A DNA stretch of 64,000 nucleotides, taken from positions 24,297 to 88,296 of the IMG/VR virus record IMGVR_UViG_3300037245_003526. The stretch is one strand, 5' to 3'. This DNA comes from a virus. Positions 29-50,176 of the stretch are shown here, piece by piece. The position numbers and the translations under genes were made by a program. Each line of letters opens with the position of its first letter. Positions within the stretch are counted from its first letter, which is position 1. Below the pieces are notes generated by a model that had not been told where the DNA came from, did not search any database, and worked only from the letters and a program-made list of their open reading frames with translations.

Positions 29-406
29 TCACTCTTTATTTTCATCTTTACTACCTTTCCAATTTGAAATTTCATCTATTTTACGTTTGGTTACTCCAGC
101 TACTACACCAGAATCTGAACCTCCATCTAAATCAGTTAATACAAAATTATTCTCTCTACAAATATGTGCTAACTGTCTATTTAATCCAAAATCCTCACAT
201 TCACATATGTGATCACCATTCTTAACTAATTCAATTCCTTCACGAACTTTTTTAAGAATTTCATCATCATCTTCTTCATCAAAATTATCATATGGCATAT
301 CTAATTCATCAAAAGACTTTAATTGGAAATCTTCTGGAATGAAAACCACATATGAGGTTGAACTACTATTAGTTATAAAATCCCCTTTAAGTTTCAAAAC
401 TTCCAC
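29..406 (-). CDS. Member 1 of the MKxKGDF(V/I)TNSSSTS N-terminal-motif paralog family (small acidic protein).
   Basis: The ORF-track start at 406 is GTG. A TTG at 395-397 preceded by AAGGAGGTG gives MKLKGDFITNSSSTSYVV, which matches the other five family members. The C-terminus is a divergent acidic region. Confidence 0.6.
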   Translation of the reverse strand: MEVLKLKGDFITNSSSTSYVVFIPEDFQLKSFDELDMPYDNFDEEDDDEILKKVREGIELVKNGDHICECEDFGLNRQLAHICRENNFVLTDLDGGSDSGVVAGVTKRKIDEISNWKGSKDENKE

Positions 407-938
407 CTCCTTTTAAATTTCCCTTACTATCTTTTTTATTTTTTATATCCTCAAGTATATCTCCGAGAACACTATAGTACATCTTTTTGAATATCGATGA
501 AATACTATTAGCTAACCCTTTGAAGAATCTGACTATAAAATCAGTTGCTATTGACCAGAATAAACATATAGGCCAATATGCCATCCAAAAAGCTACCTTT
601 GAAAACATATCATGAAATTGAGGTACAGCATGTTCATATCCATCTCTAAGATATCTTCTCTTGATATCTTTAAGCTTAAGGTAAAACTTTATTATTGAAA
701 AAACTACAGCACCTACAAAGTATATTGATAATCCAATACCAATTGCCTTAGGATTATCCCTTATATAAGGGATAATAGTTGCATCACCAAAACCAACAAG
801 AAGTAAAGCGAATATTATAAGTGCAGCAGTTGATGGATATCCCCTTTCTTCATATACAAAATATCCAAGAAACAAAATCTCAACAGCAACCAATGACCAA
901 AACCAAAATCCTCCAAATATAAAAAATGCATACAACAT
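387..938 (-). CDS. Polytopic membrane protein, function unknown.
   Basis: 183 aa with about five hydrophobic helices. Its 3' end overlaps the start of the family member downstream of it. Confidence 0.45.
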   Translation of the reverse strand: MLYAFFIFGGFWFWSLVAVEILFLGYFVYEERGYPSTAALIIFALLLVGFGDATIIPYIRDNPKAIGIGLSIYFVGAVVFSIIKFYLKLKDIKRRYLRDGYEHAVPQFHDMFSKVAFWMAYWPICLFWSIATDFIVRFFKGLANSISSIFKKMYYSVLGDILEDIKNKKDSKGNLKGGGSFET

Positions 939-6492: not shown

Positions 6493-9400
6493 CTACCTTT
6501 CTACACCTATGGCTTTTAAATAAGCATTTAATAATCTTACAGACTCTGGAATTATAGATTGTTCTTTATCATCTTTCATAAAATCAGAATCTATCTTTGT
6601 CCTTATAAACTCATTTTTCAAATCAATACAATCACTCTTAGTAGTTAGAAACTCAAACAAATTTGCAGAAGCATCATGACCTGTTAAACACGCCATTTCC
6701 ATTTCTCCGCTTCTTTGACCTCCACCATGTTTTCTTCCTGCTAAAGGTTGTAATGTTTTTCTTGCATATGATCCTATTCCTCTAGCTGATAATCTTGTTT
6801 CAGAAATATGAACCATTTTGAAAAAGTACATATAACCTACAGCTATTCTATTCTTAATAATTTCTTTTGCTATAGGTTCGTACACTTCTCTTTTGAATTC
6901 AGTATTTGTATATTCAAGTGCTTTTCTGGTAACATCTAAGTCTACTGATTCAAATGGTGGTTGAATTAAAACAATACTATCAATAAACTTCTCAGTAATT
7001 TCTCCTGGAAGCTGTTGATTAAATTGTTCATAATACCATCCACCATCGGTTCTGTCAATAATTTTGATATAATTAAGTAAGTATAATTTTAACATTTTTT
7101 GTATTTGAGCATCATCTAATCCTTCAACTCTTTTAATTTTTCTATCAAGAATTAATTTCATATATTTTCTTAAATCAGAAAGTGACATAGCTAAATGTAA
7201 TTCATAAAGCTGTCCAATATTCATTCTGCTGATGATACCCAGAGGGTTTATACATATATCAACATGACGACCATCAGGTAATTGTGGCATTTTTTCATGA
7301 GGAACAATTGTTGAAATTACTCCCTTATTTCCATGTCTGTTTCCAACTTTATCACCAACCTGAATAGGTCTGAAAAATATTGCGAATAACTCTACGAAAA
7401 TTCCATTAATTTTTTCATTCTTAATTTTGAATTTTCCTATGTTTGCATGTGTGTCTAATTCATTATCTTTGATAAACTTTATTGCTTCTTTTTTAGGAAG
7501 GTGTTCTGATATTACCCTTCGTAAATCAGTCTCTTTCTCTTGCTGATCTGTAATTTTTTTCTCTACCCATTCTTTATATTCAGGAACATCTTCATTCCAT
7601 TCATTAGCAAATATATTACACTCTGTGATATACAAATTTTTTCTTGCATATAAATTCTTTTCCTGTTTGAAAATATCAAGAAACTCTTGCTGATTAGAAG
7701 GTATAGTTTTTATAATGGCATATGTATCATCCTTTTTAATTCTATCCTCTCTAGTAGGTAGTGGTTTAAAAACATTTTTATCCAAACTTAATAAGAGTTT
7801 ATGAGGTGGAATTGTAAATGACAAATCCATATAATGTACTGATGTAAGTACATTATCATCTCTTAGTCTTTCAGATATTACTATACCATCCTCATAGTTA
7901 TAACCGTACCACTCCATTACAGCAGTAAGTAAATTTTTTCCAATATTAATCTTATTGTCAGTACAATAATTACTCTCTGCTATTATCTGACCTTTACTTA
8001 CTTTGTCACCAAATTTGACATAAATTTTTAAGACATCAAGATTTGAAATATATATCTTTCTATAAGATATATTAAAAATATCTACTTCTTCATTATCATA
8101 AGCAAGAATTAGATATTTTTCATCTAAATAAACTACTTCACCATCCTCCTTTGCAACTTTAACAAACTGTGTTTTATCAGTATATAATCCTTCGCAACCA
8201 GATTGAATCATTGGTACATCAAAATTTTGTAACATGATTGCTTGTCTCATTTGTGATGATGCCATTTGAAGTCTGGTTTGATCATCGTGCTCTAAAAAAG
8301 GAACCATTGAAACTGGAATTGAAATTGGTTGCTTTTCAAGATATTCATTTGTAAAACGTAAATTTTCATCTAACGGAACATTTGGAATTAAGTTTTGTAA
8401 CACTCCACAATTTTCCCTATCAGGAGTATCCACCGGACAAATTCTACCAAACATTGTATCATTAATATCTCGTAAATGCTCAGGTACATTTTGTTTATTA
8501 AAACCTCCAGGACCAACTAAACTCGTTCTACTTAACTTTGTGAGTTCTTCTATTGGATTTATGGAAAAGTCAAATTGAATTATATCTGAAACATTACATT
8601 CTGAAAGAATTTGTGTAGAATTTACATTAAACTTTGGTTGTCTGGCAGTTCTATTAGTAATACAGAAATCGAAGATTATTTTACTTACCTTTGATAATAT
8701 CATATATTCAAAACAACGTATTCTCTTGTTCTGCATGTCTGTATCATCAAAACCTCCAGATTCCATTGTATAGATTAATTCATCAAGAACAGAATCAGTA
8801 TGAAAAAACCTTGAAGTCATAACATCACACTTCATAATAAGGTCTAATGCAAAAACTAAATCTTCACCCTTACCTTTGGCATTATATTTTGAATAATGTC
8901 TTCCTAACTCTTTAATAATATCATCTTGTGAAGTTCTCTTATTTTCATCATAAAAATCTAAAATATCTTTTAAGAAAGCACCATACATTCCATCATTACT
9001 AAAACTATCAGAATTCAAAGAAGATAGTTTAAATTTATTATTCATTTCCTCTACACCAAAATAAGCAAACATTACTAAATGTAAAGGAACCTTTCTTCCT
9101 AAAATACTAATATAAGTATATGGTGAATCTTTTCTATCTTCAAAAACCATTATTTGAGTAACGTTGGTTCTAAGTTTTATACTCTTTCCTCTTGTAACAA
9201 CTGGAATATCAAAAAACTGAAACTGAGGAATTTTTTTCCTGCCATTTATAATTATATAATTATTATCAATAAGTTTTGGAATTTGTATTGATAAATTTAT
9301 TAAAGACGTCCCTTTCTGAAGTCTAATTGATAATGTTTTTTTCAATGTTCTGCTTATATCACCTGTAGAAAATCTTGGTTCCTTAAATTCACATTCCACA

Positions 9401-9552
9401 ACTTCAAAACCAATATCAGCCACAGGTGCTATAATCACTTTAATATCTTCTAATAAAGAACTATATTCATTAGCTCTTATATCAAAAATATTCTTCTCTG
9501 CAAGTTTATAAACTGGATTAGCTATATTCAAAAGTACTCCTCCTTTCAACAA
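6493..9552 (-). CDS. Multisubunit RNA polymerase beta-subunit homolog (set 1).
   Basis: It carries GDKVGNRHGNKGVIS (the beta C-terminal catalytic-region signature) and MASSQMRQA (an NMQRQA-like motif). 1019 aa. Confidence 0.8.
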   Translation of the reverse strand: MLKGGVLLNIANPVYKLAEKNIFDIRANEYSSLLEDIKVIIAPVADIGFEVVECEFKEPRFSTGDISRTLKKTLSIRLQKGTSLINLSIQIPKLIDNNYIIINGRKKIPQFQFFDIPVVTRGKSIKLRTNVTQIMVFEDRKDSPYTYISILGRKVPLHLVMFAYFGVEEMNNKFKLSSLNSDSFSNDGMYGAFLKDILDFYDENKRTSQDDIIKELGRHYSKYNAKGKGEDLVFALDLIMKCDVMTSRFFHTDSVLDELIYTMESGGFDDTDMQNKRIRCFEYMILSKVSKIIFDFCITNRTARQPKFNVNSTQILSECNVSDIIQFDFSINPIEELTKLSRTSLVGPGGFNKQNVPEHLRDINDTMFGRICPVDTPDRENCGVLQNLIPNVPLDENLRFTNEYLEKQPISIPVSMVPFLEHDDQTRLQMASSQMRQAIMLQNFDVPMIQSGCEGLYTDKTQFVKVAKEDGEVVYLDEKYLILAYDNEEVDIFNISYRKIYISNLDVLKIYVKFGDKVSKGQIIAESNYCTDNKINIGKNLLTAVMEWYGYNYEDGIVISERLRDDNVLTSVHYMDLSFTIPPHKLLLSLDKNVFKPLPTREDRIKKDDTYAIIKTIPSNQQEFLDIFKQEKNLYARKNLYITECNIFANEWNEDVPEYKEWVEKKITDQQEKETDLRRVISEHLPKKEAIKFIKDNELDTHANIGKFKIKNEKINGIFVELFAIFFRPIQVGDKVGNRHGNKGVISTIVPHEKMPQLPDGRHVDICINPLGIISRMNIGQLYELHLAMSLSDLRKYMKLILDRKIKRVEGLDDAQIQKMLKLYLLNYIKIIDRTDGGWYYEQFNQQLPGEITEKFIDSIVLIQPPFESVDLDVTRKALEYTNTEFKREVYEPIAKEIIKNRIAVGYMYFFKMVHISETRLSARGIGSYARKTLQPLAGRKHGGGQRSGEMEMACLTGHDASANLFEFLTTKSDCIDLKNEFIRTKIDSDFMKDDKEQSIIPESVRLLNAYLKAIGVER

Positions 9553-9932
9553 TCATGACCCCTTGAGTGTATAAGAAAATTCATCTCACTGTATTCTCTT
9601 GCTATTTTTCTCCTAATATTTTGCTCTATATTTTTTCTAACGCGTTCATAAAAATACTTTTCAGCATCGTATCCAAAAATAATATCACCTTCTTTAGTAA
9701 CCATATGAATTTTAGCAATAAGAATTTTTACATTAATTTTTTGCATAAGTGTTTGTATCAACGTAGCTGAAATATCAGGAGATAGAGCAGCAGAAAAAGA
9801 TATTATTAAAACTTCTGGTTCTAAAGATAATACCGCAATCTCAGAAACTATAGATTGATATATACCATTTTCTATAATCTGTATTTTAGTAGAACAATGT
9901 TCCTTAATTATTTTTTTAATTTTTTCAATCAT
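9546..9932 (-). CDS. Small hypothetical protein between RNAP beta-prime and beta.
   Basis: The ORF-track start at 10112 overlaps beta-prime by 170 nt. An internal Met (MIEKIKK) preceded by AGGGGAGATTTT at about 9932 is a more plausible start. Confidence 0.35.
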   Translation of the reverse strand: MIEKIKKIIKEHCSTKIQIIENGIYQSIVSEIAVLSLEPEVLIISFSAALSPDISATLIQTLMQKINVKILIAKIHMVTKEGDIIFGYDAEKYFYERVRKNIEQNIRRKIAREYSEMNFLIHSRGHDC

Positions 9933-9942
9933 AAAATCTCCC

Positions 9943-12672
9943 CTAAACTCGCTCACCACATAATATTTTATCCATAATCCCTTTATAAAGTCCTGGTTGT
10001 AATATCCCTTTAATAATATGTTTTTTAGGATTTGAGAAAGCAAGACCCATAAGCCAGCTTTCATATGAGGGGACGGTTTGAACGGAATGAAACTGAGGAA
10101 CCAGTTTTTCACGATTTTTAAGAAGACGCCATTTATAAATTCCTACCCACATTAATTGAGAAACTATACACTCAAAGTGAACATGGTTAATAGTACGAGA
10201 AGTATTATAAGTTGTATAAAGATCATCAACTAATTTTGGTATGTCAACATTTTTACCAAACTTATGTAGTAATTTAGATGCCATTGATAAATCACTAACA
10301 ATATCCTGTTGTTTCAACTCATCTACTTCTTCACCTTCTCTTATATTTGCAACTCCACTAGTATGAAATGTTCTTAAAACTAATTGAGTATTACATTCAC
10401 CCATTGATTGAGCAGCAATAATTCCAACAAACTTTGTTTTAAGATCCTCATGTAATTTTCCATAACAAGTATGACATAATTTTTCATTTTTACAATATAT
10501 GGGACTTCTAACATTTATTGTTTTTCCAATAAAGTCCATATAATTATCTTTTGTAATAAGTACTAACTCATCATCTTCAGACATCCATTTATTTATAAGT
10601 TGTTTAGCTTTCTTATCATCACGTATAAATACTTTTAATAAATCCGTTGTACCACAATCTTCAATATCATAACTCAGTAATAAATTTGCTGCTGTAAAAA
10701 TCAATTTTCTTGATAAATAACCAGAAGCTCCAGTATTAAGAGCAACATCAAGAAGACCTTTTCTACTACCATAAGTGGAATTAAAGAAACCTTTTGGGGT
10801 CAAACCACTTATAAAACTATTTTTAATTGGTTCAGGAATTATTTGACCATTAAAATTTGATACAAAACCCCTTGATAAAACTATCTGTTTAGCTTGATCC
10901 CAACTACCTCTAGCTCCAGATTCAATCATATATGAGTATTTAAATCCACTTCTTAAAATATCCATAAGGTCTTTATTCTCAGTTGAGATTTTGAAAACTT
11001 GTTCTCTTATGGACCCAGACGAGTAAATATCATCTCTGACAGTATCAATACCTTCGATATGACAATCATCGAGAGATAGAGTTGGACCGAATAGGGTTGA
11101 GTATTTGAATCCTACGAACTTGATTTTGTCCAACACCTCTGCTGTAGTAGCTAAATTATACTTTCGATTAATATCATTTAATATTCTAATCAATCCTTTT
11201 GAATTAGTAGGTTCAATAATAAGTGGATAATCTTCTGGAAAACATTCATTGAATATTTTAATATCCTCTTGAATAGTTTCCCCTTTATATTCAACTTTTC
11301 TACTTAGTTTTGGAAATTTATTATTAGTAAGTGCATATATACCAAGAACCATATCCTGACTAGGTGTTGTAGTTAAACTGCCATTAGATGGGTTCTTTAA
11401 ATTCTGAGTAATTAACATTTTTTCAATTGCTTCTTGTTTAGTTTCTTCGCTAATAGGAACATATATGGCCATCTGATCTCCATCAAAATCAGCATTAAAT
11501 GGTGGGCAAGATAATGGATGAATTCTAATAACATTATCTAAAGATATTTTAATATAGTATGCTAACATACTAAGTTTATGGAGAGATGGTTGTCTGTTTA
11601 ATATACAAACTTCTCCACTACATATTTCTTCACATAAGGAAAATAAAACTGATGAGTTTGAAGCTATACACTCATCAATAAAATCAATAGATTGATTTAG
11701 CAATTTAAACTGTCCTGTATCTATTAGTTTCTTTGCTACTTCAATCTTAAAGATTTCTAAAAATATAATATAAGGAATTGAACATTGATCAATGTTTAAT
11801 GTTGGATCTGGTACTATGACTGCTCTACCAGAAAAATCTATTCTTTTACCAAGTATGTTTCCCCTGATAAGACCTTCTTTTTTAGAAAGTTTTTCAAGAA
11901 TATAAGCATATAATTCATTTACATCTTTTTGAAGTTGTCTGAAATGATTATAGAATAAGGTATTATCTCTTCTGACATCAATCAGCGATTCTTCAATAAC
12001 TTCTTTCTTTGTAAGAACCTGCATGTAATACTTATTAATCTTATCTGCATATTGTTCACTTCTTAAGGATCCTTTAGTAGCAGGTCTTAAATCAGCAGGT
12101 AATACAATAATACGATCTATTATTAATTCATCAATATTATCATATACAATCTGCCATGGTGAATCTTCCTCCTCGTCAATTGCTTTCTCTGCTAACTTAA
12201 ATACAAGCTCATGTATAGCTTCTAACCCATACCATGCTTCTCGTCCTTCTTCAATTTCATCTGAATTAGTAACTATTAGATCATTATTATCCTCATGTTC
12301 ATCATCCAAAACAAGGACAGATTTTTCATCTCTCATTAGCTTTTTTAAAGCTTCTTTTAATGAGGTACCAGCAAGATCAACTACCAAATCATAAAATACT
12401 GGATTGACCACAGGCACCGGAAGAACTATTTTTGCAAACCTTCTTCTTCGTTCATCACTATTAACAACATCAACACTACATATATTACATGTACCTCCAG
12501 AACCAGATGTTCCATAATATGTACCGCATTGACATGTGTAGTTTTTTAGTGGACCAAATATTTGTTCGCTAAATAGTCCTTCCGGATGAAATTTTTTCTT
12601 ATCCATTACCTTAGTTGTAGTTATTTCAGGAAGGTTTTCTGTAAATTCTGTAAACTTTAGTAGACTCGGCAT
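9943..12672 (-). CDS. Multisubunit RNA polymerase beta-prime-subunit homolog (set 1).
   Basis: It has an N-terminal zinc finger (CQCGTYYG...CNICS), the catalytic NADFDGD, and a trigger-loop region IIAAQSMGECNTQLVLRTFHTSG. 909 aa, ending soon after the trigger loop. Confidence 0.85.
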   Translation of the reverse strand: MPSLLKFTEFTENLPEITTTKVMDKKKFHPEGLFSEQIFGPLKNYTCQCGTYYGTSGSGGTCNICSVDVVNSDERRRRFAKIVLPVPVVNPVFYDLVVDLAGTSLKEALKKLMRDEKSVLVLDDEHEDNNDLIVTNSDEIEEGREAWYGLEAIHELVFKLAEKAIDEEEDSPWQIVYDNIDELIIDRIIVLPADLRPATKGSLRSEQYADKINKYYMQVLTKKEVIEESLIDVRRDNTLFYNHFRQLQKDVNELYAYILEKLSKKEGLIRGNILGKRIDFSGRAVIVPDPTLNIDQCSIPYIIFLEIFKIEVAKKLIDTGQFKLLNQSIDFIDECIASNSSVLFSLCEEICSGEVCILNRQPSLHKLSMLAYYIKISLDNVIRIHPLSCPPFNADFDGDQMAIYVPISEETKQEAIEKMLITQNLKNPSNGSLTTTPSQDMVLGIYALTNNKFPKLSRKVEYKGETIQEDIKIFNECFPEDYPLIIEPTNSKGLIRILNDINRKYNLATTAEVLDKIKFVGFKYSTLFGPTLSLDDCHIEGIDTVRDDIYSSGSIREQVFKISTENKDLMDILRSGFKYSYMIESGARGSWDQAKQIVLSRGFVSNFNGQIIPEPIKNSFISGLTPKGFFNSTYGSRKGLLDVALNTGASGYLSRKLIFTAANLLLSYDIEDCGTTDLLKVFIRDDKKAKQLINKWMSEDDELVLITKDNYMDFIGKTINVRSPIYCKNEKLCHTCYGKLHEDLKTKFVGIIAAQSMGECNTQLVLRTFHTSGVANIREGEEVDELKQQDIVSDLSMASKLLHKFGKNVDIPKLVDDLYTTYNTSRTINHVHFECIVSQLMWVGIYKWRLLKNREKLVPQFHSVQTVPSYESWLMGLAFSNPKKHIIKGILQPGLYKGIMDKILCGERV

Positions 12673-27721: not shown

Positions 27722-27937
27722 CTATCCTTCGTAAGTAATTCTTTTTTCTTTATTCCAAAGTTCGTTAGGATAACACATGTTTATCATCCTTTCCGCTTCT
27801 TCAAAAGTATCATAAGAGTACGGTTCAGATTTCTTTCCAGATGGTTTAACTTTATGCCACCCCCTCTCACCATCATTATTGATACTGAAAACTTCCATAT
27901 AAAATTTAATGACCAATACCTCCTTAGTATCCTTCAC
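27722..27937 (-). CDS. Hypothetical small protein.
   Basis: 71-aa ORF. Confidence 0.3.
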   Translation of the reverse strand: MKDTKEVLVIKFYMEVFSINNDGERGWHKVKPSGKKSEPYSYDTFEEAERMINMCYPNELWNKEKRITYEG

Positions 27938-28241
27938 AGTCCACTATTTGTATTCCTTCTGTTTCCTCCAAAAATTCCATCAATACTTCATCCTGTACAC
28001 AAAGATAATGAACCTCTTTACCTTTAGCTTTCATTTCAATTGCTTTTCTATGAAATTTATCAGATAAGAACCAACCTTCTTCCACTGCACCCTTCTCTAT
28101 TTGTTCATCAGTTAACTTTATAATCCTATAAAGTTTAGAAGCATTGAAGTTAGAAATTATATCACCCCCTTCTTTTCTTGAATCTGAAAGTAAAAATGTA
28201 ACAGAGCTACTATTGGTTACAAAATCTCCTCTTAATTTCAT
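27924..28241 (-). CDS. Member of the MKxKGDFVTNSSS family, with the variant motif SSSVTF.
   Basis: It starts MKLRGDFVTNSSSVTFLL. Confidence 0.6.
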   Translation of the reverse strand: MKLRGDFVTNSSSVTFLLSDSRKEGGDIISNFNASKLYRIIKLTDEQIEKGAVEEGWFLSDKFHRKAIEMKAKGKEVHYLCVQDEVLMEFLEETEGIQIVDCEGY

Positions 28242-28249
28242 AACACCAC

Positions 28250-29053
28250 CTATTCACATTTCTTCTGTTTTAAACCACTCCATCCATCAGATACACCAAG
28301 AGGAAATATCCTATCATTTACTGAGACACATAAATTACCATCCCTACATAAAATATTAGTTTCAGCTTTAATATTAGTTTCACATTCCATTGGTACTATA
28401 TCACCCCAATCATCAATGGCACCAATAGCAACTTCAGCTCCATTATAAAGTATATAAGCTTTCTTTTCCCTGCATATTATATCAATCATAGATGAGGAAG
28501 CTGATTTCTGTGCAATAGTATCCAACTTTTTTGCAAGAATATTTATACCCTTTTTGACTTGAGCAATACGTCTCTCAGTAGCATATTCTTTTACAGTTTT
28601 TTTAGCTGTATCAACAACAATCTCTTTTGCTGCATTTTTAGCTACTTTTTCTGAATATGCTTTGAAGTTTGGTATAGCTATAGCAGCCAATATAGCTATA
28701 ATAGAAATTACTATCATCAGCTCTATTAAAGTAAATCCACCTCCCCAACTACCACCTCCCTCACTTGGAGGACTTTCCAACTCACATATCTGTTTTTCAA
28801 ATTTTTCGATGTCTTTCTCACACTTTTTAATCTTTATGGTTACTCTAACTTCTTGTTCCATAGCATCCATTGTAGCTTTAACTTCATTTAATTTTTTAAC
28901 TTTATCTTTTAACTTCTTAACTTTATCCTCAACAGTCTCGGATATAAATTCACCTTGGGTAATTAAATTGACAATTCTTTTACCAACAAATTTCCATAAA
29001 CCCCAAGCAACAAATCCAATGAAAATTAACCCTATTATTCCCTGAGCAAACAT
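28250..29053 (-). CDS. Membrane-anchored coiled-coil protein with an internal type IV prepilin-like motif and a Cys-containing C-terminal domain.
   Basis: N-terminal TM helix, then a K/E-rich coiled coil, then GGGSWGGGFTLIELMIVISIIAILAAIAIPNF. That last stretch is a canonical class III signal with G|FTLIE, about 105 aa in from the start. The C-terminus has multiple Cys, as in pilin D-regions. Confidence 0.5.
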   Translation of the reverse strand: MFAQGIIGLIFIGFVAWGLWKFVGKRIVNLITQGEFISETVEDKVKKLKDKVKKLNEVKATMDAMEQEVRVTIKIKKCEKDIEKFEKQICELESPPSEGGGSWGGGFTLIELMIVISIIAILAAIAIPNFKAYSEKVAKNAAKEIVVDTAKKTVKEYATERRIAQVKKGINILAKKLDTIAQKSASSSMIDIICREKKAYILYNGAEVAIGAIDDWGDIVPMECETNIKAETNILCRDGNLCVSVNDRIFPLGVSDGWSGLKQKKCE

Positions 29054-29142
29054 ATTTTTATCTCCTTTTAATTTTAGAAAATGGGATCCCTAATTAAAGG
29101 GACCCCATTCTTATTAAATATATTTAATACTCTATAATTTAA

Positions 29143-30441
29143 CTATTTTTTTACTGCTCCCTTTGGTATATCCAGATTAAGACCAAGCTGCTTCAAAGCT
29201 ATAAGAGAAAGAACATCCTGCATAGCCAAAGCATCTCCATCTACTCCAGATTTTCCACTACCACCCATCATAACTGTTGGAACAGGTCTTATTGAAAAAG
29301 CATTTGCCCATACTTTCTGTACTCTTTCATAAGTTTTAAGCTTTTGTTCAAGAGCACCATCTGCTCTAAGGACAAGTTTCTTTCTTTCTGATTCACCCTG
29401 ACCCAATAGAATCAGCTCAGCTTTCTTAAATGCAGCAGCTTCCTTATCCAGCTTATTAACTGTCTTTCTTTGCTCACCACCAATTACAGCAACTTGTTTA
29501 TCCCTTTCAGCATTAAGTTCCTGTACCTCTTTATTCTTTTGAGCTTCAACTACAGCACGAACCTTCTTCTGCTCTTCCTCATATTTTGCTTTAGCAACCT
29601 TTGCTTTTCCCTGTGCCTCAATAGTAAGCTTCTCCTGCTCCGCTTTTTTGGCTTCAGTTATAGCAGTTGCAACAGCCATTAAGGATGCCTGTTGAGTAGC
29701 GATCTGTTCTTTAACCTTAGGTGCATATTCAAAAGTTTTAATCTCAAAGTTCTTGAGAGTAATACCTGTCCCCTCTAAAGGATTAGAAAGATATAGAGGT
29801 TGAGAGTTAGGTTTTCCATCTACCGTTTTAATAATTTTGAAAGTTTTATGAACCTTCTCACCAGATATAGGATCGATTACATCTCTTTCCTCATCCATTG
29901 TCTCATATAGACCATTCTCAACCTGGTCTCGTGCCCATGTATTATAATCAATTCTCTTAGAAGCATAAGACTCCTGAGCAGTCATCATATTTGCTGTCAT
30001 CCTCAGAGCATTACGAATAGTTGGAAGAATCATTTTATTTTGTACTTCTTCTGGAGATGCGTAACCATCTTCTGTTATAAGCTCTATAGCATCCTTTGCT
30101 CCAACAGGTAAAAGTACACGAGCAGTTCCTGAGATTTTACATAAGGAACCATCCACAAATCGTACCTCTATTGATTGATCATAACTTCCACCTTCTTCTA
30201 CATCATGTGTAAAGAAGAATGTAAATGCCTTTGGCCAGGTGTCAATGTCACCCCATAATTGAAGCCAAAGTCCTGGTTGCATTTTAGCAGACATTTTTCC
30301 TGTTACGGCTGCCTGCTTTATCTGATATGTACCTTTTCCTACAGTGCTAACAATTTTAGAAGCACATATCAAGGCTATAATAATACATATAACTGATATT
30401 ACTCCAATAACTACACCCCTGTTAATCTCTTGTTTTGCCAT
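29143..30441 (-). CDS. SPFH/band-7 (flotillin/HflK-like) membrane protein.
   Basis: N-terminal TM helix, an SPFH-like core (QPGLWLQLWGDIDTWP...SIEVRFVDG), and an EA-rich coiled coil (KKAEQEKLTIEAQGKAKVAKAKYEEEQKK). Confidence 0.5.
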   Translation of the reverse strand: MAKQEINRGVVIGVISVICIIIALICASKIVSTVGKGTYQIKQAAVTGKMSAKMQPGLWLQLWGDIDTWPKAFTFFFTHDVEEGGSYDQSIEVRFVDGSLCKISGTARVLLPVGAKDAIELITEDGYASPEEVQNKMILPTIRNALRMTANMMTAQESYASKRIDYNTWARDQVENGLYETMDEERDVIDPISGEKVHKTFKIIKTVDGKPNSQPLYLSNPLEGTGITLKNFEIKTFEYAPKVKEQIATQQASLMAVATAITEAKKAEQEKLTIEAQGKAKVAKAKYEEEQKKVRAVVEAQKNKEVQELNAERDKQVAVIGGEQRKTVNKLDKEAAAFKKAELILLGQGESERKKLVLRADGALEQKLKTYERVQKVWANAFSIRPVPTVMMGGSGKSGVDGDALAMQDVLSLIALKQLGLNLDIPKGAVKK

Positions 30442-30533: not shown

Positions 30534-31238
30534 TTAATTACCTCCTTTCCCAGCTTCTGGTTTTAAATATAGATTAATATTAAAAGTACCTTTTTGTCGA
30601 TTTAATGACTTTGTTTCTTTATGTCCATGAATGGTTAGTCTTCCGTCTATTTCCTTATTCCATACCTCTCTTTTTCTAAGTTCTTCAGCAGAATAACAAT
30701 CAGAGGTATTTGCATAATAACCCATAGGATCTCCACCGTTCCAACCATCTCCTCTAGTTTCATTAACTGTTTGATCATATTCAACCATTATTTTTTCACT
30801 ATCAAAATTTTCAAATATTTTTGACATAATTAATTTAAATGTATGATAAGGCATTTCAGTTTTTGGTGAAGTTGTATTTGGTGATAATCCTTCATACTCG
30901 ATTTTTATTTTTGATCCATTTTTTTTAACTCTAACTTTATATGAACCACATGCACCACAATTTTCACAATCTATAACTTTACACATTTCTTTATCTTTCA
31001 GAGTATATCCATCTTCGAACTGGTCAGGATTTCTAATGAAACCTTCAAATTCAAGATTATCATGTTTAATTTTTAGAAATGATGAAAAACCTTTGAATTC
31101 AAGATCATTGCTCATAACTGCAGAAATAAATGATGGAAGATCTATTTCCTCATCTGTAAAAATATTTGTTTTTCCAATTCCTTTTAAAACAAATGATGTC
31201 GAACTACTATTAGTTACAAAATCTCCTTTTATTTTCAT
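30534..31238 (-). CDS. Member of the MKxKGDFVTNSSSTS family, long form.
   Basis: It starts MKIKGDFVTNSSSTSFVL and has the C-terminal GDGWNGGDPMGYY motif shared with 21992-22690. Confidence 0.6.
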   Translation of the reverse strand: MKIKGDFVTNSSSTSFVLKGIGKTNIFTDEEIDLPSFISAVMSNDLEFKGFSSFLKIKHDNLEFEGFIRNPDQFEDGYTLKDKEMCKVIDCENCGACGSYKVRVKKNGSKIKIEYEGLSPNTTSPKTEMPYHTFKLIMSKIFENFDSEKIMVEYDQTVNETRGDGWNGGDPMGYYANTSDCYSAEELRKREVWNKEIDGRLTIHGHKETKSLNRQKGTFNINLYLKPEAGKGGN

Positions 31239-31546
31239 TAACCCCTCCCTTTTTTAATAAGCCATTCAATACCCTCAGAAGCTGCAAAGAATATAAATAT
31301 ACATACTACTGCAATAATAGGTATTCCTACAAACAAACCCAGTATGACTACTACTGGTAACCACATTGGAGAAAGTACCCACCACCATGACCATGCGATT
31401 TTTCCAAGAAGTTTAAGAGTAATGAATATTAATGTAAGAATTTGAGGAAATTTTAAACCATTAACTACATATCTCTGTTTTCCTTCTAATAATTTCATTT
31501 GTTTTTTTAAAGAATCCCCAAAGGATTTTTTTCTCATTTCAACCAT
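31238..31546 (-). CDS. Small membrane protein, holin-like size.
   Basis: 102 aa with two or three TM segments. Its stop overlaps the start of the downstream family member. Confidence 0.4.
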   Translation of the reverse strand: MVEMRKKSFGDSLKKQMKLLEGKQRYVVNGLKFPQILTLIFITLKLLGKIAWSWWWVLSPMWLPVVVILGLFVGIPIIAVVCIFIFFAASEGIEWLIKKGRG

Positions 31547-32967: not shown

Positions 32968-33444
32968 CTAACTTAGAGAATACTGTGCAGCTCCAGAATC
33001 ATTCTCCCAAACTCTTATAAAGCTAACTGTTGGATTATTTTTAAAATTAGCATCTCTTAAATCTTCGCTAAGTTTAAAATATAAATGTTCAGCAAAAACT
33101 TCTGCTGTAGGATCTTGTCCTATAGAACTTATAGTCTGAGTACGATAATCTTGCTTCTTAAAAAATTCTATATTATCCTTATCAACTATATTTAAAATAG
33201 TTGTATGATCAAATACTTTAAGCAAATCATTTACAATTAACTTTAAGTCATGAAAATCAAGAACCATATCATTTTCATTTAATGAATCCGATTTTAATTC
33301 AACTTCAATCTTAAGATTATGTCCATGGATATTCTTACATAACCCTTTGTGTTTACTCAGTCTATGACCAATAGGGATTTTGAATATCTTTCTTAGTCTA
33401 TACATTATTCCTCCTTTATATTTCAGTATATTGTTTAATAACAA
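32968..33444 (-). CDS. queD: QueD/6-pyruvoyl-tetrahydropterin synthase-family protein (6-carboxytetrahydropterin synthase-like).
   Basis: HRL, then the zinc motif CKNIHGH (Cx3HGH), then DFHDLK, DHT.ILN, and QDPTAEVFAEHLY. These sit in the same order as in QueD/PTPS. Confidence 0.75.
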   Translation of the reverse strand: MLLNNILKYKGGIMYRLRKIFKIPIGHRLSKHKGLCKNIHGHNLKIEVELKSDSLNENDMVLDFHDLKLIVNDLLKVFDHTTILNIVDKDNIEFFKKQDYRTQTISSIGQDPTAEVFAEHLYFKLSEDLRDANFKNNPTVSFIRVWENDSGAAQYSLS

Positions 33445-45054: not shown

Positions 45055-48000
45055 TTATCTCCAAATCATTAAACTTATAAAGTATGAATTTAATAAATCT
45101 CTTACCGGTGCATGTTTAGGAGGTCTATACTTAGCACCACCTGTTTGAATAATATCAGATAATATTTCATTCTTTGTTACATGATCATCAGATAAAGGAC
45201 CAAAAAATTCTTCTAGTAAAGAAGGACAATTATAAGAAATAAATGAATACGTATCTAATTCACCCATTCTTTGACCACCGTCTTTTCTTTTGCCGGCAGT
45301 AGGTTGAAATGTCTTGGATGTAATAGGTCCAGTACTTCTAACATGAAGTTTTTCAGATCCTATATGTTCAAGTTTAAGCATATACAAATATCCAACTGCT
45401 ACTGGATATTTTGTTGTTGTATTATACTCTGGAAGTCTTAATTTATATCCAGGTTTTAATTTAAGTGCTTTTAAAGTAGCTAAAATTTCTTTATAAGATG
45501 GAGCTTTAAAAGGAGGAATTAATAATGTCATACTCCCGCTAGCTTTTACTTGACTAATAAATTTAGTAAACATAGCAGCAGACATACCTCTAAATTTAGA
45601 TATAAGACCCTTACTAAATTCTTTATTTTTAGTAGTATCAAGTTTAGGTAAGACTTGATTCAATAATGCCACTACTTTTGGTTTATTATTTAATTTTATT
45701 ATTTGTCTTCCTAACTCATGCGAAATTAAACCTGTATATGTTTCATAAAACTGACCAACATTCATTCTTCCTATAATACCTACAGGATTTAAAATAATAT
45801 CTATTCGATCTCCAGTTGGGGAAATAGGCATATTTTCATCTTTTTCAATTAATGAAATAATACCCTTTGCTCCATGTCTATTAGTTAACTTATCACCAAC
45901 CATAACTGGTAGCTCTTGTTCTACTTTAAATCTTATAACAACACCTTTTACATTTTCACCCCTATTAGTAAATTTTTCTTTAGGTTTTAGTTTATATCTT
46001 TTTCTGGTTCTATCAACAAGTGGTTTCAATTCTGGAAATATACTTTCTCTTAAATTAGAAAACACTTCAATATCAACAATTTTCCCACCTGGTGATTTTT
46101 TAATATAGTGTCCTGCTATGATATCAACACCTTCTTCTTCCTCGTCATAACCTATTAATTGCTCGATTTCACCCACTGTTTTTCGTATTAACACTTCACC
46201 TTTTTCAGTTTCAGCACCTAACTCAACCATTTTTATAATTCTATCACCTTTATCAATTTGTACTTCTTCAACTATTCCATGAAGTGATGTAAGGAGTTCT
46301 TTCTTAACAACTGATTCTGAAATAACAATACCATCCTCAAAATTATGACCCTTATAAGGCATAAATGCTACACATAAAGTTCTACCTAAAGCTATAGATC
46401 CAGAAGTAATACATGAACCCTCAGCAATAATTTGTTTATTTTTAACAACCTGACCAACTTTAACTACCGGTTTGAAAACACTTAAAGTATTTTTTCCAGC
46501 TCCTGATCTAAGATGAACTGGTACTATATCAATCTTATTAGTCTTCCCACCTGTGCAAGTAACACTAATAAAATCCTCAGTAATATTTTTTATTTTTCCA
46601 TTACATGGTGATCTTTTAATAAATGCATCAGATAAGACACTAGTTAATATTGATTCATATCCTGTTTGAATAGATGGTGTTTCTGGATTCTTTAGTGGTA
46701 CAGACTGTCTTTGCTGATTACATCCAAACATAACTCTGTTACCATCATTATTTTCTACAAAAGGAATTTGAGCTGCAGTAGTTGAAAGTAAACCAGAATC
46801 TTCTCCTTCCTTAATACCTTTTGGAGTTATTAAACCTCTTGCTGATGTAATATATGCATCAACAGTAAGCTGCTGAACTATTCCTACATTTTCACCTTCT
46901 GGTGTATCTAATGTATCAATATTTCCATACATAGATGTATGGACATTTCTTCCTTCCATTTGAATTGCCGTCTTATCAGGTATTCCTCCAATTGATTTAC
47001 CTACTGGAGATATTCTTGTTTTGGTAGCCATTTCTTCAACTGGATTTGCATATTCCATATCAACAACAATTTCTGAATTTATAAATTCGCTTAATACTTT
47101 TGTTGGAGATAATTCAAAAGTTGCTTTCTTGTTTCCGGATAATACTTGCTCTTTATATTCTGTATATGAAGCTAATATTTGTTTTTGTGCTAGATGTACT
47201 AAAATCTCAGAGTTTCTTATTCTTTGATTTGAGACATCATTTCTTTTTTGTGTAAATCCTTCAACTGCTTTAGACGCCATGTATTTCATTATTAAATCAA
47301 GATTACTTGGTAATTGTTGATTTATAAGAACTTGTTTAGCAACCGGATCAACAATATTTTCTAAGTTTGATTGGATTAAAAATGTAGAATTTATTCTTCC
47401 GCTCATTTTTATTATAAGATCATTAAAATATTCTTTTGTACCAAATTCTTTATCTATTTTAAATGAAGAAATATTAGCATGTATAAAAGATTGACATAAT
47501 TCTTCTTGAAGTTTAGTTTCAGCTCCATTGAAAACTATATATTTATTCGGTTCAATCAAAGATCTAAATTTTTCCTCTTTTGGACGTTCCTCTTCAAACT
47601 TATGGGTTAGATTATATAATTTTAATGTTTCTTTAAAACCAAAACTAAAAGCAAGTAGTATCATTAATGGAAGTTTATAAGAACCAATATAAGCTTCTAA
47701 GTATTCTTCTCTTATAGTTCTCTTACTCCATATATGAAATGTAGAATAACTACTTTCAAATTTTGAGTCAAATTGTTTAGGAAATGAAATAGGATTAAGA
47801 ACTATTTGATTAATTAAACATTTCTTTCTACCATTAACAAGAAATGTTCCATCTTCTGATATCTTAGGTACATCTATTCGAACTACATGTTTTTTATTAT
47901 ACATACCTGTTAATGTTACTTCGACAGTATTTATATCTGATCTACTTAGTTCACCCATATTAGTTGGTTTTTCAATTATTTTAATACTCTTATAAGTTAG

Positions 48001-49143
48001 TGGAACCTCTTTAGTTTTTAGAACCTTAAATGAGTTTGCCATATCCTTTTTAAGATTAGTTTCAAAATCAATTTTTCTCTTCTCAAATAAATGTTCAGGA
48101 GACTTATTATCAACCATTTTTGGAGCATTAGATAATTGTATTACTACATCTCCTGAAGTTGTTTCAGTCTTTTGAGGTTTTAGTAGTTCATCAGCATATT
48201 GTCTATCAACTACTTTTAATGAAAGTAATTTCTTAGCTTTAGGAATAGATTTAGCAGTTCTAGATGCCTTTTCAATATCACCTGAAGTCCTGTATAATAT
48301 TGAAGCAGTTGCAATTTCTCTAGCATCATTGTCATCAACTAAATCATAAGTAACCTTATCCATTTCTTTTTTATTTTTTGTAAAAAAGTCATAGATAGCA
48401 GCAAAAATTTTAGACCTATTAGAAGGACTAACGTCTCCATCAATTCTTCTCATTATAGAGGATGTAGCAAGACTAATTTTCTTATGTTCTTCTTCTTCTG
48501 TATCTATAAGTTTTATATTCTTTAAAAATTGTTTAACCCTTGTAAATTTGAAGTCTTTGTCTTTTATAAGCAGTCTATAATTAGATGAAGATTCATTTAT
48601 AATATTCATAATCAAATGATCATAATTAATTTCTTCCTTCTTTAAATCAAGTAATAAAGGAAATATCTTTCTATCAATTAGACTCTTTGTTTCTTTAGTA
48701 GCATCAACTGAATATAAAAGAACTTTCTGATAATTTGGAGGGAAACTACTTAGAACTTTTAAAAGCATATTTTTAATTAAGAAACCTGCTCTTTGTCTAT
48801 AATTAGTAACCTTGTATGATATGTCTATTGTATTTAAAAAACCGGAAAGGTCATATACTAAATTTTGTCCCTTTGGTACTTTCTGGTTAGAACTTAAAGC
48901 AAGTAAACTATGACTTTTATATAAATTCTTTATATCAGGAGTTAAATAAGAAATTGGAATCTTTGTACGCGGAACTATTACATACCTAACATCTATTCGT
49001 TTCAAATTCAACTTTTCGTAATCATCTATAAAAGATGAATTTTCACTAAAATAGATTAATAAAAAAGGTTCTTTTCTATTTTGAGGAAAACGAATTCCAT
49101 CTACTAGATGTGTATATTGTCTTATTGATTTGAATTGAATCAT
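45055..49143 (-). CDS. Multisubunit RNA polymerase beta-subunit homolog (set 2).
   Basis: GDKLTNRHGAKGIIS, and CNQQRQS-like and other beta-region motifs. 1362 aa. Confidence 0.85.
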   Translation of the reverse strand: MIQFKSIRQYTHLVDGIRFPQNRKEPFLLIYFSENSSFIDDYEKLNLKRIDVRYVIVPRTKIPISYLTPDIKNLYKSHSLLALSSNQKVPKGQNLVYDLSGFLNTIDISYKVTNYRQRAGFLIKNMLLKVLSSFPPNYQKVLLYSVDATKETKSLIDRKIFPLLLDLKKEEINYDHLIMNIINESSSNYRLLIKDKDFKFTRVKQFLKNIKLIDTEEEEHKKISLATSSIMRRIDGDVSPSNRSKIFAAIYDFFTKNKKEMDKVTYDLVDDNDAREIATASILYRTSGDIEKASRTAKSIPKAKKLLSLKVVDRQYADELLKPQKTETTSGDVVIQLSNAPKMVDNKSPEHLFEKRKIDFETNLKKDMANSFKVLKTKEVPLTYKSIKIIEKPTNMGELSRSDINTVEVTLTGMYNKKHVVRIDVPKISEDGTFLVNGRKKCLINQIVLNPISFPKQFDSKFESSYSTFHIWSKRTIREEYLEAYIGSYKLPLMILLAFSFGFKETLKLYNLTHKFEEERPKEEKFRSLIEPNKYIVFNGAETKLQEELCQSFIHANISSFKIDKEFGTKEYFNDLIIKMSGRINSTFLIQSNLENIVDPVAKQVLINQQLPSNLDLIMKYMASKAVEGFTQKRNDVSNQRIRNSEILVHLAQKQILASYTEYKEQVLSGNKKATFELSPTKVLSEFINSEIVVDMEYANPVEEMATKTRISPVGKSIGGIPDKTAIQMEGRNVHTSMYGNIDTLDTPEGENVGIVQQLTVDAYITSARGLITPKGIKEGEDSGLLSTTAAQIPFVENNDGNRVMFGCNQQRQSVPLKNPETPSIQTGYESILTSVLSDAFIKRSPCNGKIKNITEDFISVTCTGGKTNKIDIVPVHLRSGAGKNTLSVFKPVVKVGQVVKNKQIIAEGSCITSGSIALGRTLCVAFMPYKGHNFEDGIVISESVVKKELLTSLHGIVEEVQIDKGDRIIKMVELGAETEKGEVLIRKTVGEIEQLIGYDEEEEGVDIIAGHYIKKSPGGKIVDIEVFSNLRESIFPELKPLVDRTRKRYKLKPKEKFTNRGENVKGVVIRFKVEQELPVMVGDKLTNRHGAKGIISLIEKDENMPISPTGDRIDIILNPVGIIGRMNVGQFYETYTGLISHELGRQIIKLNNKPKVVALLNQVLPKLDTTKNKEFSKGLISKFRGMSAAMFTKFISQVKASGSMTLLIPPFKAPSYKEILATLKALKLKPGYKLRLPEYNTTTKYPVAVGYLYMLKLEHIGSEKLHVRSTGPITSKTFQPTAGKRKDGGQRMGELDTYSFISYNCPSLLEEFFGPLSDDHVTKNEILSDIIQTGGAKYRPPKHAPVRDLLNSYFISLMIWR

Positions 49144-49149
49144 ATTCTA

Positions 49150-49899
49150 TTACCTGTTCCTATATGTAGAGCTTCCAAGTCTTGTTGATCTTCTTTCACC
49201 TTCTTTAAGTGTTCCTGTCATAACTCGTTCTATTATTGAAGTTTCTACTCGTTCTTCAGAAATTAAACCAGTCTTAATAGCATCATTAATATTCTCAAAT
49301 GCTAGACCGTTTATAAATCCTTCTGAGAATATTACCTTCTTTAAATTAACCAAAACAGGATCCCATTTTCTAGCAAGTCTAGCAGGTTGTTGTAAATTAT
49401 TCTTGTCCCTTAAAACCTGACTACAAACAACCTCTAAATGAACAGCATCCATATCAGAGTTTTTAGCATATACAGCTAATATTTTTCTAAATAAATGTGA
49501 TGCATCCTTTAATAGTTCTCTACCACCTATAAGTCTTTCAACATAAGCTATCTGTCCCTTTATCTCCGCTGCCTCAGTCGAAACTTCAAGTATAGTTGAG
49601 TTAGCTTCATATTGTAATTTTATATATTCCCTTCCTATTTTTTCAAGTTCATATACCTTTAACTCAACAGAATAATCCAATGTAATATCAATAATCTTAT
49701 CACTAAATTCTGCTTTTGATATTAAAGATTTAACCCATATCTTACCATTCTCAATTCGCATATTCTCTTTATCATATTGTGTCATGTCCAATGTAATCGT
49801 ACATGGCTTAATAGCAACTAAAACATTCTCTTCCTGCTTTAAATATTCCTTTATTTTTTTTGCCATTATAATTATACCCTTTTTGGATGAGTCTTCCAT
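49150..49899 (-). CDS. Hypothetical protein between RNAP beta and beta-prime of set 2.
   Basis: 249-aa ORF. Confidence 0.4.
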   Translation of the reverse strand: MEDSSKKGIIIMAKKIKEYLKQEENVLVAIKPCTITLDMTQYDKENMRIENGKIWVKSLISKAEFSDKIIDITLDYSVELKVYELEKIGREYIKLQYEANSTILEVSTEAAEIKGQIAYVERLIGGRELLKDASHLFRKILAVYAKNSDMDAVHLEVVCSQVLRDKNNLQQPARLARKWDPVLVNLKKVIFSEGFINGLAFENINDAIKTGLISEERVETSIIERVMTGTLKEGERRSTRLGSSTYRNR

Positions 49900-50174
49900 A
49901 ACTTTCTATTTTCTTCTTTTCTTCTTTTCTCTTCTTTTTTACGAGCTTCTATCTTTTTTATTTTATCTACGTTTTCTGATTTTTTAAGATTAAGTTCCTT
50001 TTTTTGTTTTTTATTTTTTGCTTTTACTTTTGCTATTTTATATAATGTAGAAGTACCTATTCCTGCAGCAATTATTGCAGATAGCGAAATACCATGTTTT
50101 TTTGCTAATCTCTTAATTTTATCTAATTTCTCACCCTCTGTTTGAATACAACTTAAGTAATTTTCAAGTATCAT
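49872..50174 (-). CDS. Small basic K/E/R-rich protein.
   Basis: 100 aa (KKEEKRRKEENRK). Confidence 0.3.
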   Translation of the reverse strand: MILENYLSCIQTEGEKLDKIKRLAKKHGISLSAIIAAGIGTSTLYKIAKVKAKNKKQKKELNLKKSENVDKIKKIEARKKEEKRRKEENRKLWKTHPKRV

Positions 50175-50176
50175 TT

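Follow-up and report, generated by a model that had tools for sequence, protein, structure and literature searches.

The window analysed here is a 64,000-nucleotide stretch of the IMG/VR virus record IMGVR_UViG_3300037245_003526 (positions 24,297 to 88,296), and its subject is a minus-strand gene (28250..29053, stop codon included) whose 267-residue product carries the class III signal of a type IV prepilin behind a membrane-anchored leader of 106 residues. The window comes from a phiKZ-like jumbo phage and has two multisubunit RNA polymerase gene sets, a GC content of 30% and all of its genes on one strand; the contig is 244 kb long. The large split polymerase genes, encoding β/β', lie in two separate sets on the minus strand (6493-12672 and 45055-52522), and two such split sets are a hallmark of phiKZ-like jumbo phages. 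The upstream partner of the fusion gene encodes a 432-residue SPFH/Band-7 membrane protein (29143..30441, minus strand), recognised by PF01145 (26.1 against a threshold of 23.6) and phrog_11908 (3e-58).

Layout of the fusion gene and its product

The open reading frame (ORF) is preceded by a Shine-Dalgarno sequence, AAGGAG (29062..29067, minus strand), located 8 nt upstream of the ATG of M1 and conserved in two related loci, L001 and L002; a further locus with a fused gene, L006, has AAGGAGG at the equivalent place. Between the SPFH gene and the fusion gene lies a terminator-like hairpin, GGGGTCCC-TTTAATTA-GGGATCCC followed by ATTTTCT (29076..29106, minus strand), whose pairing is kept with changed bases in L002, and different hairpins occupy that position in L005 and L006. 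Since a terminator-like hairpin separates the two genes, the fusion gene may be transcribed apart from its SPFH neighbour.

The leader half starts with a transmembrane (TM) helix at residues 1-20 (MFAQGIIGLIFIGFVAWGLW; 28994..29053, minus strand), which is predicted to be N-out and has Kyte-Doolittle windows above 1.9. A basic flank, KFVGKR, and a K/E-rich coiled coil follow (residues 21-95; 28769..28993, minus strand), predicted to be cytoplasmic and homologous to stand-alone SPFH-partner proteins (see below). Over residues ~29-91, hydrophobic residues fill 62-88% of the heptad a/d positions in 28-residue windows vs. 15-30% elsewhere, and AlphaFold2 (AF2) places a helix over residues 41-93 at low confidence, in a model of the full protein that drew on three sequences and is unusable overall (predicted local distance difference test, pLDDT, of 39). 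The leader closes with a flexible linker, PSEGGGSWGGG (residues 96-106; 28736..28768, minus strand), which ends in G106, the -1 residue of the prepilin signal. The linker before the pilin helix reads SPPSEGGGSWGGG and is followed by F107-TLIE111-LMIVISIIAILAAIAIP128-NF; its W-G-G-G is invariant in the three genes of the window clade (window, L001 and L002), and indels within it comprise whole codons. In all three genes the Gly-rich linker is encoded by two copies of the Shine-Dalgarno-like GGAGGT (28736-28759, minus strand), with no start codon at a usable distance downstream.

The pilin half opens with the class III signal (GGGFTLIELMIVISIIAILAAIAIP), comprising G106 (-1), F107 (+1), E111 (+5) and P128 (+22), and this is the sole class III motif in the six frames of the window. 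The match to the class III signal (IPR012902) is better than chance would give: it scores 26.9 bits against PF07963 (N_methyl; gathering score 21.2) and 29.6 against TIGR02532 (IV_pilin_GFxxxE; cut-off 16.3). The hydrophobic helix (FTLIELMIVISIIAILAAIAIPNF) covers residues 107-130 (28664..28735, minus strand), which places the predicted peptidase cut between 28736 and 28735. Type IV pilin signals have a leader closed by Gly/Ala and then 20-25 mostly hydrophobic residues, often including Glu at +5 (PMC10191384); here the leader ends in Gly, the sequence beyond it is hydrophobic as far as P128/F130, and Glu occupies +5. An exhaustive HMMER search with a family profile matched 36,510 proteins at E<=0.001, almost all via the class III segment, and the closest solved relatives by sequence are the major type IVa pilins (Geobacter PilA at 1e-16, then those of P. 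aeruginosa and Neisseria), with GspG far weaker. None of the NCBIfam equivalog cut-offs for specific pilin classes was reached, the matches being confined to the N-terminal part of the pilin helix (alpha1N); the best scores were 40.4 vs. 138 for the PpdD type, 39.9 vs. 400 for the myxobacterial-type PilA model (PilA Myxo), 34.9 vs. 75 for ComGC and 30.8 vs. 88.85 for GspG.

Beyond this segment, the helix continues into a variable spacer (residues 131-186; 28496..28663, minus strand) that AF2 models as helical with pLDDT <50 and whose length varies in the family; in P0003, the homologue encoded at L002 (1175-2074), this helical spacer holds a 30-residue tandem duplication (RIAQSKKSIAVLSARLNKIIQETSPSFESE / RIAQAKKGIGELSASLNKIIQETSPSFETE). 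The C-terminal head consists of two beta repeats. The first (residues 187-225; 28379..28495, minus strand) is bounded by the invariant C194 and C224, follows the pattern C..KaYIl..G....iG..DDWGDi....C and reaches an AF2 pLDDT of 82-88. The second (residues 226-267; 28253..28378, minus strand) contains C236, C242 and C266, is bounded by C236/C266 and is a tandem duplicate of the first: the two, of 35-40 residues each, give a local alignment score of 51 vs. 19 +/- 3.9 for shuffled sequences, a value that 0 of 2000 shuffles reached. The repeat is likewise duplicated in the pilin P0122 and is single in P0121, P0126, P0130, P0132, P0133 and P0202. Type IV pilins have a "lollipop" fold, with a long alpha1 helix and a beta-sheet head that usually carries a C-terminal disulfide. 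An AF2 model built on 10 family sequences shows alpha1 and a beta head at a mean pLDDT of 71, with ~86 for alpha1N, 82-88 for the two beta meanders and <50 for the connection between helix and head. Across the 10-member family alignment, the invariant positions are G-1, F1, T2, L3, E5 and P22, the C194/C224 pair, one head Gly and one head Trp. The first-pass annotation, made from the sequence alone, had described a prepilin signal about 105 residues inside the frame, an N-terminal membrane helix and coiled coil before it and a Cys-containing C-terminal domain after it, and all three elements were recovered in this analysis.

Comparison with relatives indicates that the gene is very probably a real in-frame fusion of two phage genes, made as one chain from M1. 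Four fused genes are known, in two lineages, namely the window clade and L006. Among 5.8 billion clusters, only three close homologues were found, the protein itself, P0002 (80%) and P0003 (66%), and the fusion matched nothing in GenBank phages at either the DNA or the protein level. P0002 and P0003 keep the frame across the junction, where linker indels are multiples of 3 nt. The leader shows a dN/dS (ratio of nonsynonymous to synonymous substitution) of ~0.45 and the pilin helix (alpha1N) one of 0.04-0.09, with dS saturated vs. L002; judged by these values, both halves are under purifying selection. Between the window and L002 the leader is nearly identical (that of P0003 is identical over 88 residues) and the pilin has diverged, whereas between the window and L001 the pattern is reversed. 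Because the two comparisons show reverse patterns, recombination treats the junction as a module boundary, with its breakpoint there.

The competing explanation is that an ordinary prepilin is translated from an internal start, the long ORF being an annotation artefact that takes in an open stretch of the same frame further upstream, or the product of two genes merged by sequencing error. The candidate start is a TTG at L92, 14 codons before G106, but this codon is TTA in both homologues (L001 and L002) and lacks a Shine-Dalgarno sequence; M65, the sole conserved in-frame start between M1 and G106, lacks one as well, and the fused gene of L006 (P0121, on a 304-kb contig) has no in-frame ATG, GTG or TTG between M1 and its own site, G97|F98. 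Many pilin genes in high-GC contigs do have long open stretches upstream, and merged tandem pilins do exist in databases (P0004-P0007). Here, however, the upstream part has the selection pattern and whole-codon indels described above and homologues of its own, the residues before G106 are acidic/Gly-rich without Met or a basic leader, unlike those of the IMG/VR pilins examined, and the same DNA recurs in three assemblies, since the further independent assemblies L003 and L004 carry identical ORF DNA. Given the start-codon comparison, the frame-keeping indels, the dN/dS values and the three assemblies, internal initiation, a sequencing artefact and a pseudogene are each very unlikely on sequence grounds, and we regard the ordinary-prepilin explanation as highly improbable. 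A start just upstream of the G|F site, which the first-pass annotation had named as a finding that would undo its proposal, was thus not borne out. P0004-P0007, which are long proteins with an internal N_methyl motif, were also considered as analogues of the fusion and rejected: on inspection, they seem to stem from tandem pilin genes in high-GC genomes by read-through or frameshifting.

Stand-alone relatives and gene neighbourhood

The family-profile search also returned the two halves as separate proteins. P0123 (102 aa) and P0141 (96 aa) are stand-alone leader modules that residues 1-95 match over their full length, and P0122 (146 aa, starting MSKKG|FTLIEL) is a stand-alone pilin with the same duplicated Cys-repeat head. 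P0123 and P0122 are encoded at L005, in a neighbourhood syntenic with the window that runs gyrB, topoisomerase IV, QueD-like, helicase, a 101-aa ORF, SPFH, P0123, a 66-aa ORF, P0122, a zinc-ribbon ORF and, further on, SbcD. Since the neighbourhood is the same and the two modules are separate there, the single gene of the window corresponds to two genes of L005. The 66-aa ORF between the TM-coil and prepilin genes of L005 (10306-10506) is Cys-rich, overlaps the upstream stop with its start (ATGA) and has no counterpart in the window. Prepilins are expected to carry an N-terminal signal with a hydrophilic cytoplasmic leader; P0122 has such a short leader, whereas the fusion has 106 residues with a TM helix of their own, the last ~85 of them being predicted to lie in the cytoplasm. 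Short-leader mini-pilins with one repeat are represented by P0126, P0130, P0132, P0133 and P0202. A mini-pilin of this kind combines a type IVa-like alpha1 helix with one or two disulfide-bounded beta repeats. Outside the fused genes, the mini-pilins are ordinary prepilins with leaders of 4-6 residues, and P0126 is found on another phage-like contig with topoisomerase IV and QueD-like genes.

The TM-coil module is far more widespread than the pilin next to it. Nearly all related loci have a TM-coil gene after SPFH. In an SPFH-anchored comparison of 21 IMG/VR loci and 5 metagenome loci, ~20 have as the next gene after SPFH one for a protein of 89-130 aa that starts with a helix and continues as a coiled coil; the 3.5-4 kb around these pairs contain no pilin. 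A leader-module profile retrieved 22 more proteins, all of 90-130 aa and none fused, in a search whose completeness is doubtful given that P0001-P0003 were not listed by it. Residues 1-95 of the fusion share the features of these proteins, i.e., a hydrophobic helix at the start (often MFAQ...), a basic flank, a K/E coil and a position directly downstream of SPFH, and they match phrog_1009 at 4e-6. Because the TM-coil gene stands alone after SPFH in ~20 loci and its product recurs in 22 database proteins, the "leader" is, by this comparison, a conserved phage protein in its own right and the partner of the phage SPFH/Band-7 protein; we infer a physical association of the two from their conserved adjacency. 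By the same comparison the pilin is an addition to this pair: two lineages, the window clade and L006, carry it in fused form, and one, L005, as a separate gene. The first-pass annotation had offered fusion of a pilin gene as one of two explanations, and the separate genes of L005, together with the stand-alone TM-coil genes, speak for it.

A neighbour-joining tree of the SPFH proteins (no support values) places the two fused lineages together and the split L005 just outside; the order of fusion and fission was not drawn from it. When the SPFH protein was compared with 185,579 species genomes, no match, no prophage copy and no clue to the host emerged. Distant SPFH homologues occur in L032 (Vibrio phage pVp-1; T5-like), L034 (crAss001 gp91-gp89) and L033 (LR756500.1, a 462-kb uncultured phage), where each adjoins small membrane proteins, with no pilin close by; the crAss001 gene for SPFH is two genes from a peptidoglycan hydrolase.

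Several other genes of the region are worth recording. Many related phages encode, a short way downstream of the SPFH/TM-coil pair, members of a family of small proteins that begin MK[IL]KxDF[IV]TNSSS..., with two paralogues in the window (27924-28241 and 27087-27497, minus strand) and members at L011 (5508-5954), L012 (5511-5903), L014 (5630-6343) and L005 (11370-11783); the family has no match in Pfam, PHROG, NCBIfam or PADLOC. Near the replication genes lie a QueD-like gene (32968-33444) and a radical SAM gene (20947-21978) in the window and a gene of the GTP cyclohydrolase I type in L006 (10865-11731), which suggests modification of DNA by a 7-deazaguanine or queuosine-type pathway. Two further predicted membrane proteins of the window are a 102-aa protein with 2 TM segments (31238-31546, minus strand; phrog_1374), encoded three genes upstream of SPFH, and a 183-aa protein with 3 TM segments (387-938, minus strand).

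Predicted topology, proposed processing and competing readings

The orientation of the fusion protein in the membrane can be predicted from its charges. In 20 leader-module homologues, no K/R precedes the helix, whereas the 12 residues behind it contain 54 in all. Because of this asymmetry, the positive-inside rule predicts TM1 to be N-out/C-in, which would leave both coil and Gly linker on the cytoplasmic side. The pilin helix would then cross the membrane N-in/C-out and expose the Cys-rich head in the periplasm, the arrangement of every prepilin. Prepilin peptidases cut at the cytoplasmic face, right after the Gly/Ala that ends the leader (PMC10191384). Since the predicted orientation of the coil is what such a peptidase needs, the fusion is topologically "legal". 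In the opposite orientation, a head of disulfide type would lie in the cytoplasm, and the pilin would be inverted compared with its homologues that have short leaders.

A host prepilin peptidase of the PilD/GspO/ComC type would, in the favoured mechanism, cut between G106 and F107 and yield the products of the split form, namely an SPFH-partner protein of 106 aa and a mature pilin with an N-terminal Phe. The mature pilin (161 residues) would join the type IV filament machinery of the host, where it would change the pilus or block it, and the fusion would guarantee that the two products are made 1:1 and are located together with the SPFH membrane domain. During infection, the phage would probably benefit by masking a receptor or by excluding superinfecting phages; pili are reported to be used by many jumbo phages. 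Pilus alteration and receptor masking are proposed because of the analogy with P-FimU and with the PilA-like genes of virulent phages (see below). Cleavage would fit the topology predicted above and the fact that G-1, F+1 and E+5 are conserved, and we put the chances that the host peptidase cuts at G106|F107 and that the released pilin enters the host type IV machinery at about even.

Several points weigh against this mechanism. Cleavage at G106|F107 is a prediction from sequence; the reviews consulted describe no prepilin with a ~100-residue membrane-anchored leader, and the second anchor might hinder access of the peptidase. The type IV filament machinery and the peptidase of the host are assumed. 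The window, which covers 64 kb of the 244 kb contig, contains no multi-TM peptidase-like ORF, no GxGDxK motif and no other type IV pilus gene. The pilin head has no significant match in structure libraries. G-1 might be conserved merely as part of a flexible linker, two fused lineages being known. Finally, P0121 has a Lys at +8 of its hydrophobic helix, which hints at a relaxed pilin constraint in that lineage.

This Lys suggests that the helix need not pack in a filament core, and it is among the points in favour of a different fate for the protein, in which the pilin stays uncleaved and tethered as a two-pass membrane protein (TM1, a cytoplasmic coil and the pilin helix as TM2). Such a protein could display its small Cys-rich domain in the periplasm within an SPFH-associated complex, or it could act as a plug, with alpha1 docking in the assembly platform of the host pilus or type II secretion system (T2SS) and, as it cannot be extracted from the membrane, exerting a dominant-negative effect. 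The architecture is kept in two phage lineages without a usable internal start, the leader, a membrane protein in its own right, usually goes with an SPFH protein, and truncated PilA stubs in Pseudomonas phages have been proposed to inhibit assembly (PMC12952977). Against permanent tethering, G-1 is kept in 4/4 fused genes despite very different linkers (GGGSWGGG|F and NNEKG|F), and the invariant E+5 and P+22 are relevant to assembly rather than to anchoring. The orthologous split form is, moreover, a canonical cleavable prepilin, which implies that a processed pilin is the ancestral or derived state of the module. We consider the tethered form possible but rather unlikely.

The same N-terminal architecture also invites comparison with lysis proteins. 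Rz-type i-spanins, like the fusion, have an N-terminal TM helix followed by a charged coiled coil, and residues 7-91 weakly match phrog_739 "Rz-like spanin" (7e-5) and phrog_937 "hemolysin" (3e-5), although such PHROG matches are expected from any K/E coiled coil. The TM helix and coil would in that case form an Rz-like i-spanin (N-in, with a periplasmic coil), and the pilin helix would be a second membrane-active segment; the proximity of the crAss001 SPFH gene to a peptidoglycan hydrolase could be read in this sense. However, from the distribution of charges the N-terminus is predicted to be outside and the coil cytoplasmic, the reverse of an i-spanin, and an N-in orientation would place the Cys-rich head in the cytoplasm, unlike in the homologous short-leader prepilins. 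The fusion also lacks an o-spanin partner and a lysis-gene context: neither within the gene nor next to it on that strand (27901-29160) is there a lipobox ORF, and the neighbours are DNA-metabolism genes with no endolysin or holin. A role in lysis is, therefore, hardly credible. A defence system was likewise considered and rejected, PADLOC giving no match for the fusion protein, the SPFH protein or P0122.

Beyond cleavage as such, the fusion may be a working device and no accident of evolution, in which a pilin tethered by its 106-residue leader is delivered to an SPFH-organised membrane domain and there either released on demand by the host peptidase or kept tethered, its alpha1 helix engaging the pilus/T2SS platform or PilD and jamming or sequestering it. 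We regard this extension as speculative and improbable; if true, the phage would have built, on an SPFH scaffold, a trap for the type IV filament machinery of its host, and the fusion would be the first prepilin in nature with a leader that spans the membrane.

Phage pilins, related systems and biological meaning

The first-pass annotation had called phage-encoded pilin-like proteins rare, which holds for the architecture described here and is overstated for pilin-like proteins at large, given the published phage pilins and the presence of the exact GFTLIELMIV coding motif in at least 119 IMG/VR contigs (some of which may be host DNA at prophage edges). None of 120 IMG/VR instances of GFTLIELMIV has a membrane-anchored long leader, and nearly all of those with long upstream open stretches show an evident short leader with Met and basic residues. 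In L114, a 41-residue hydrophilic leader precedes only 37 mature residues, and L057 may be a second case of a long hydrophilic leader. Very small pilins with short leaders are encoded at L046, L051, L079 and L149; their mature part closes with one Cys-bounded hairpin (e.g., ...CVNGILFKISPQG...C). Phage mini-pilins may thus be a broader phenomenon. The head of the window protein, used as a single sequence, found no relative in IMG/VR.

The published phage pilins include P-FimU, encoded by F10-like Pseudomonas prophages, which becomes a component of the pilus and blocks phages that bind the tip (Sztanko et al., Cell Rep 2026, PMC12952977), and PilA-like proteins, encoded by Xylella prophages and by virulent phages (PMC12952977). 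These proteins share with the fusion a phage-borne class III signal, an expected processing by the host, a likely alteration of the pilus receptor and an occurrence that includes non-temperate phages. However, they are short-leader proteins that resemble the host FimU or PilA (PMC12952977), whereas the fusion has a 106-aa membrane-anchored coiled-coil leader and its head of Cys-bounded DDWGD repeats, unlike theirs, matches no host pilin or solved fold.

The leaders of long-leader prepilins have ~15-30 residues. These prepilins, which include type IVb pilins and the major pilins of S. sanguinis (PMC10191384), resemble the fusion in having a leader longer than 5-10 residues that is still Gly-ended; their leader is hydrophilic, whereas that of the fusion, with 106 residues, includes a TM helix and a coiled coil and has a homologue that stands on its own. 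Modular type IV pilins such as PilB of Streptococcus sanguinis (PMC8179133) likewise combine a pilin module and a second module in one polypeptide, but in known modular pilins the extra module is C-terminal and filament-borne, whereas in the fusion it is N-terminal to the cut site and would stay in the membrane. The SPFH gene and its small partner recall the SPFH/NfeD pairs (E. coli QmcA-YbbJ, PDB 8z5g; HflK/C), in which an SPFH/Band-7 gene adjoins a small membrane partner gene, and this analogy suggests a membrane-microdomain or cage complex. The phage partner, which consists of a single TM helix and a coiled coil, lacks the NfeD OB-fold and hits nothing in Pfam, and identification as an NfeD-type SPFH partner was rejected, NfeD giving no hit in Pfam at E<=0.1. 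A literature search found no paper describing a membrane-anchored leader/pilin fusion.

Phage pilins have recently been shown to act in phage-vs-phage competition by replacing a host pilus component (PMC12952977), and the proteins described here add to them a family of mini-pilins in uncultured phiKZ-like jumbo phages. The pair of fused and split arrangements ties these mini-pilins to an uncharacterised phage module of an SPFH protein and a coiled-coil protein, and it provides the first functional lead for that module. As a natural substrate, the fusion also lends itself to finding the amount of N-terminal cargo, a second membrane anchor included, that a prepilin peptidase tolerates, a question that bears on substrate recognition. 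If the tethered form is the active one, phages would be able to disable type IV pili or type II secretion by a new route.

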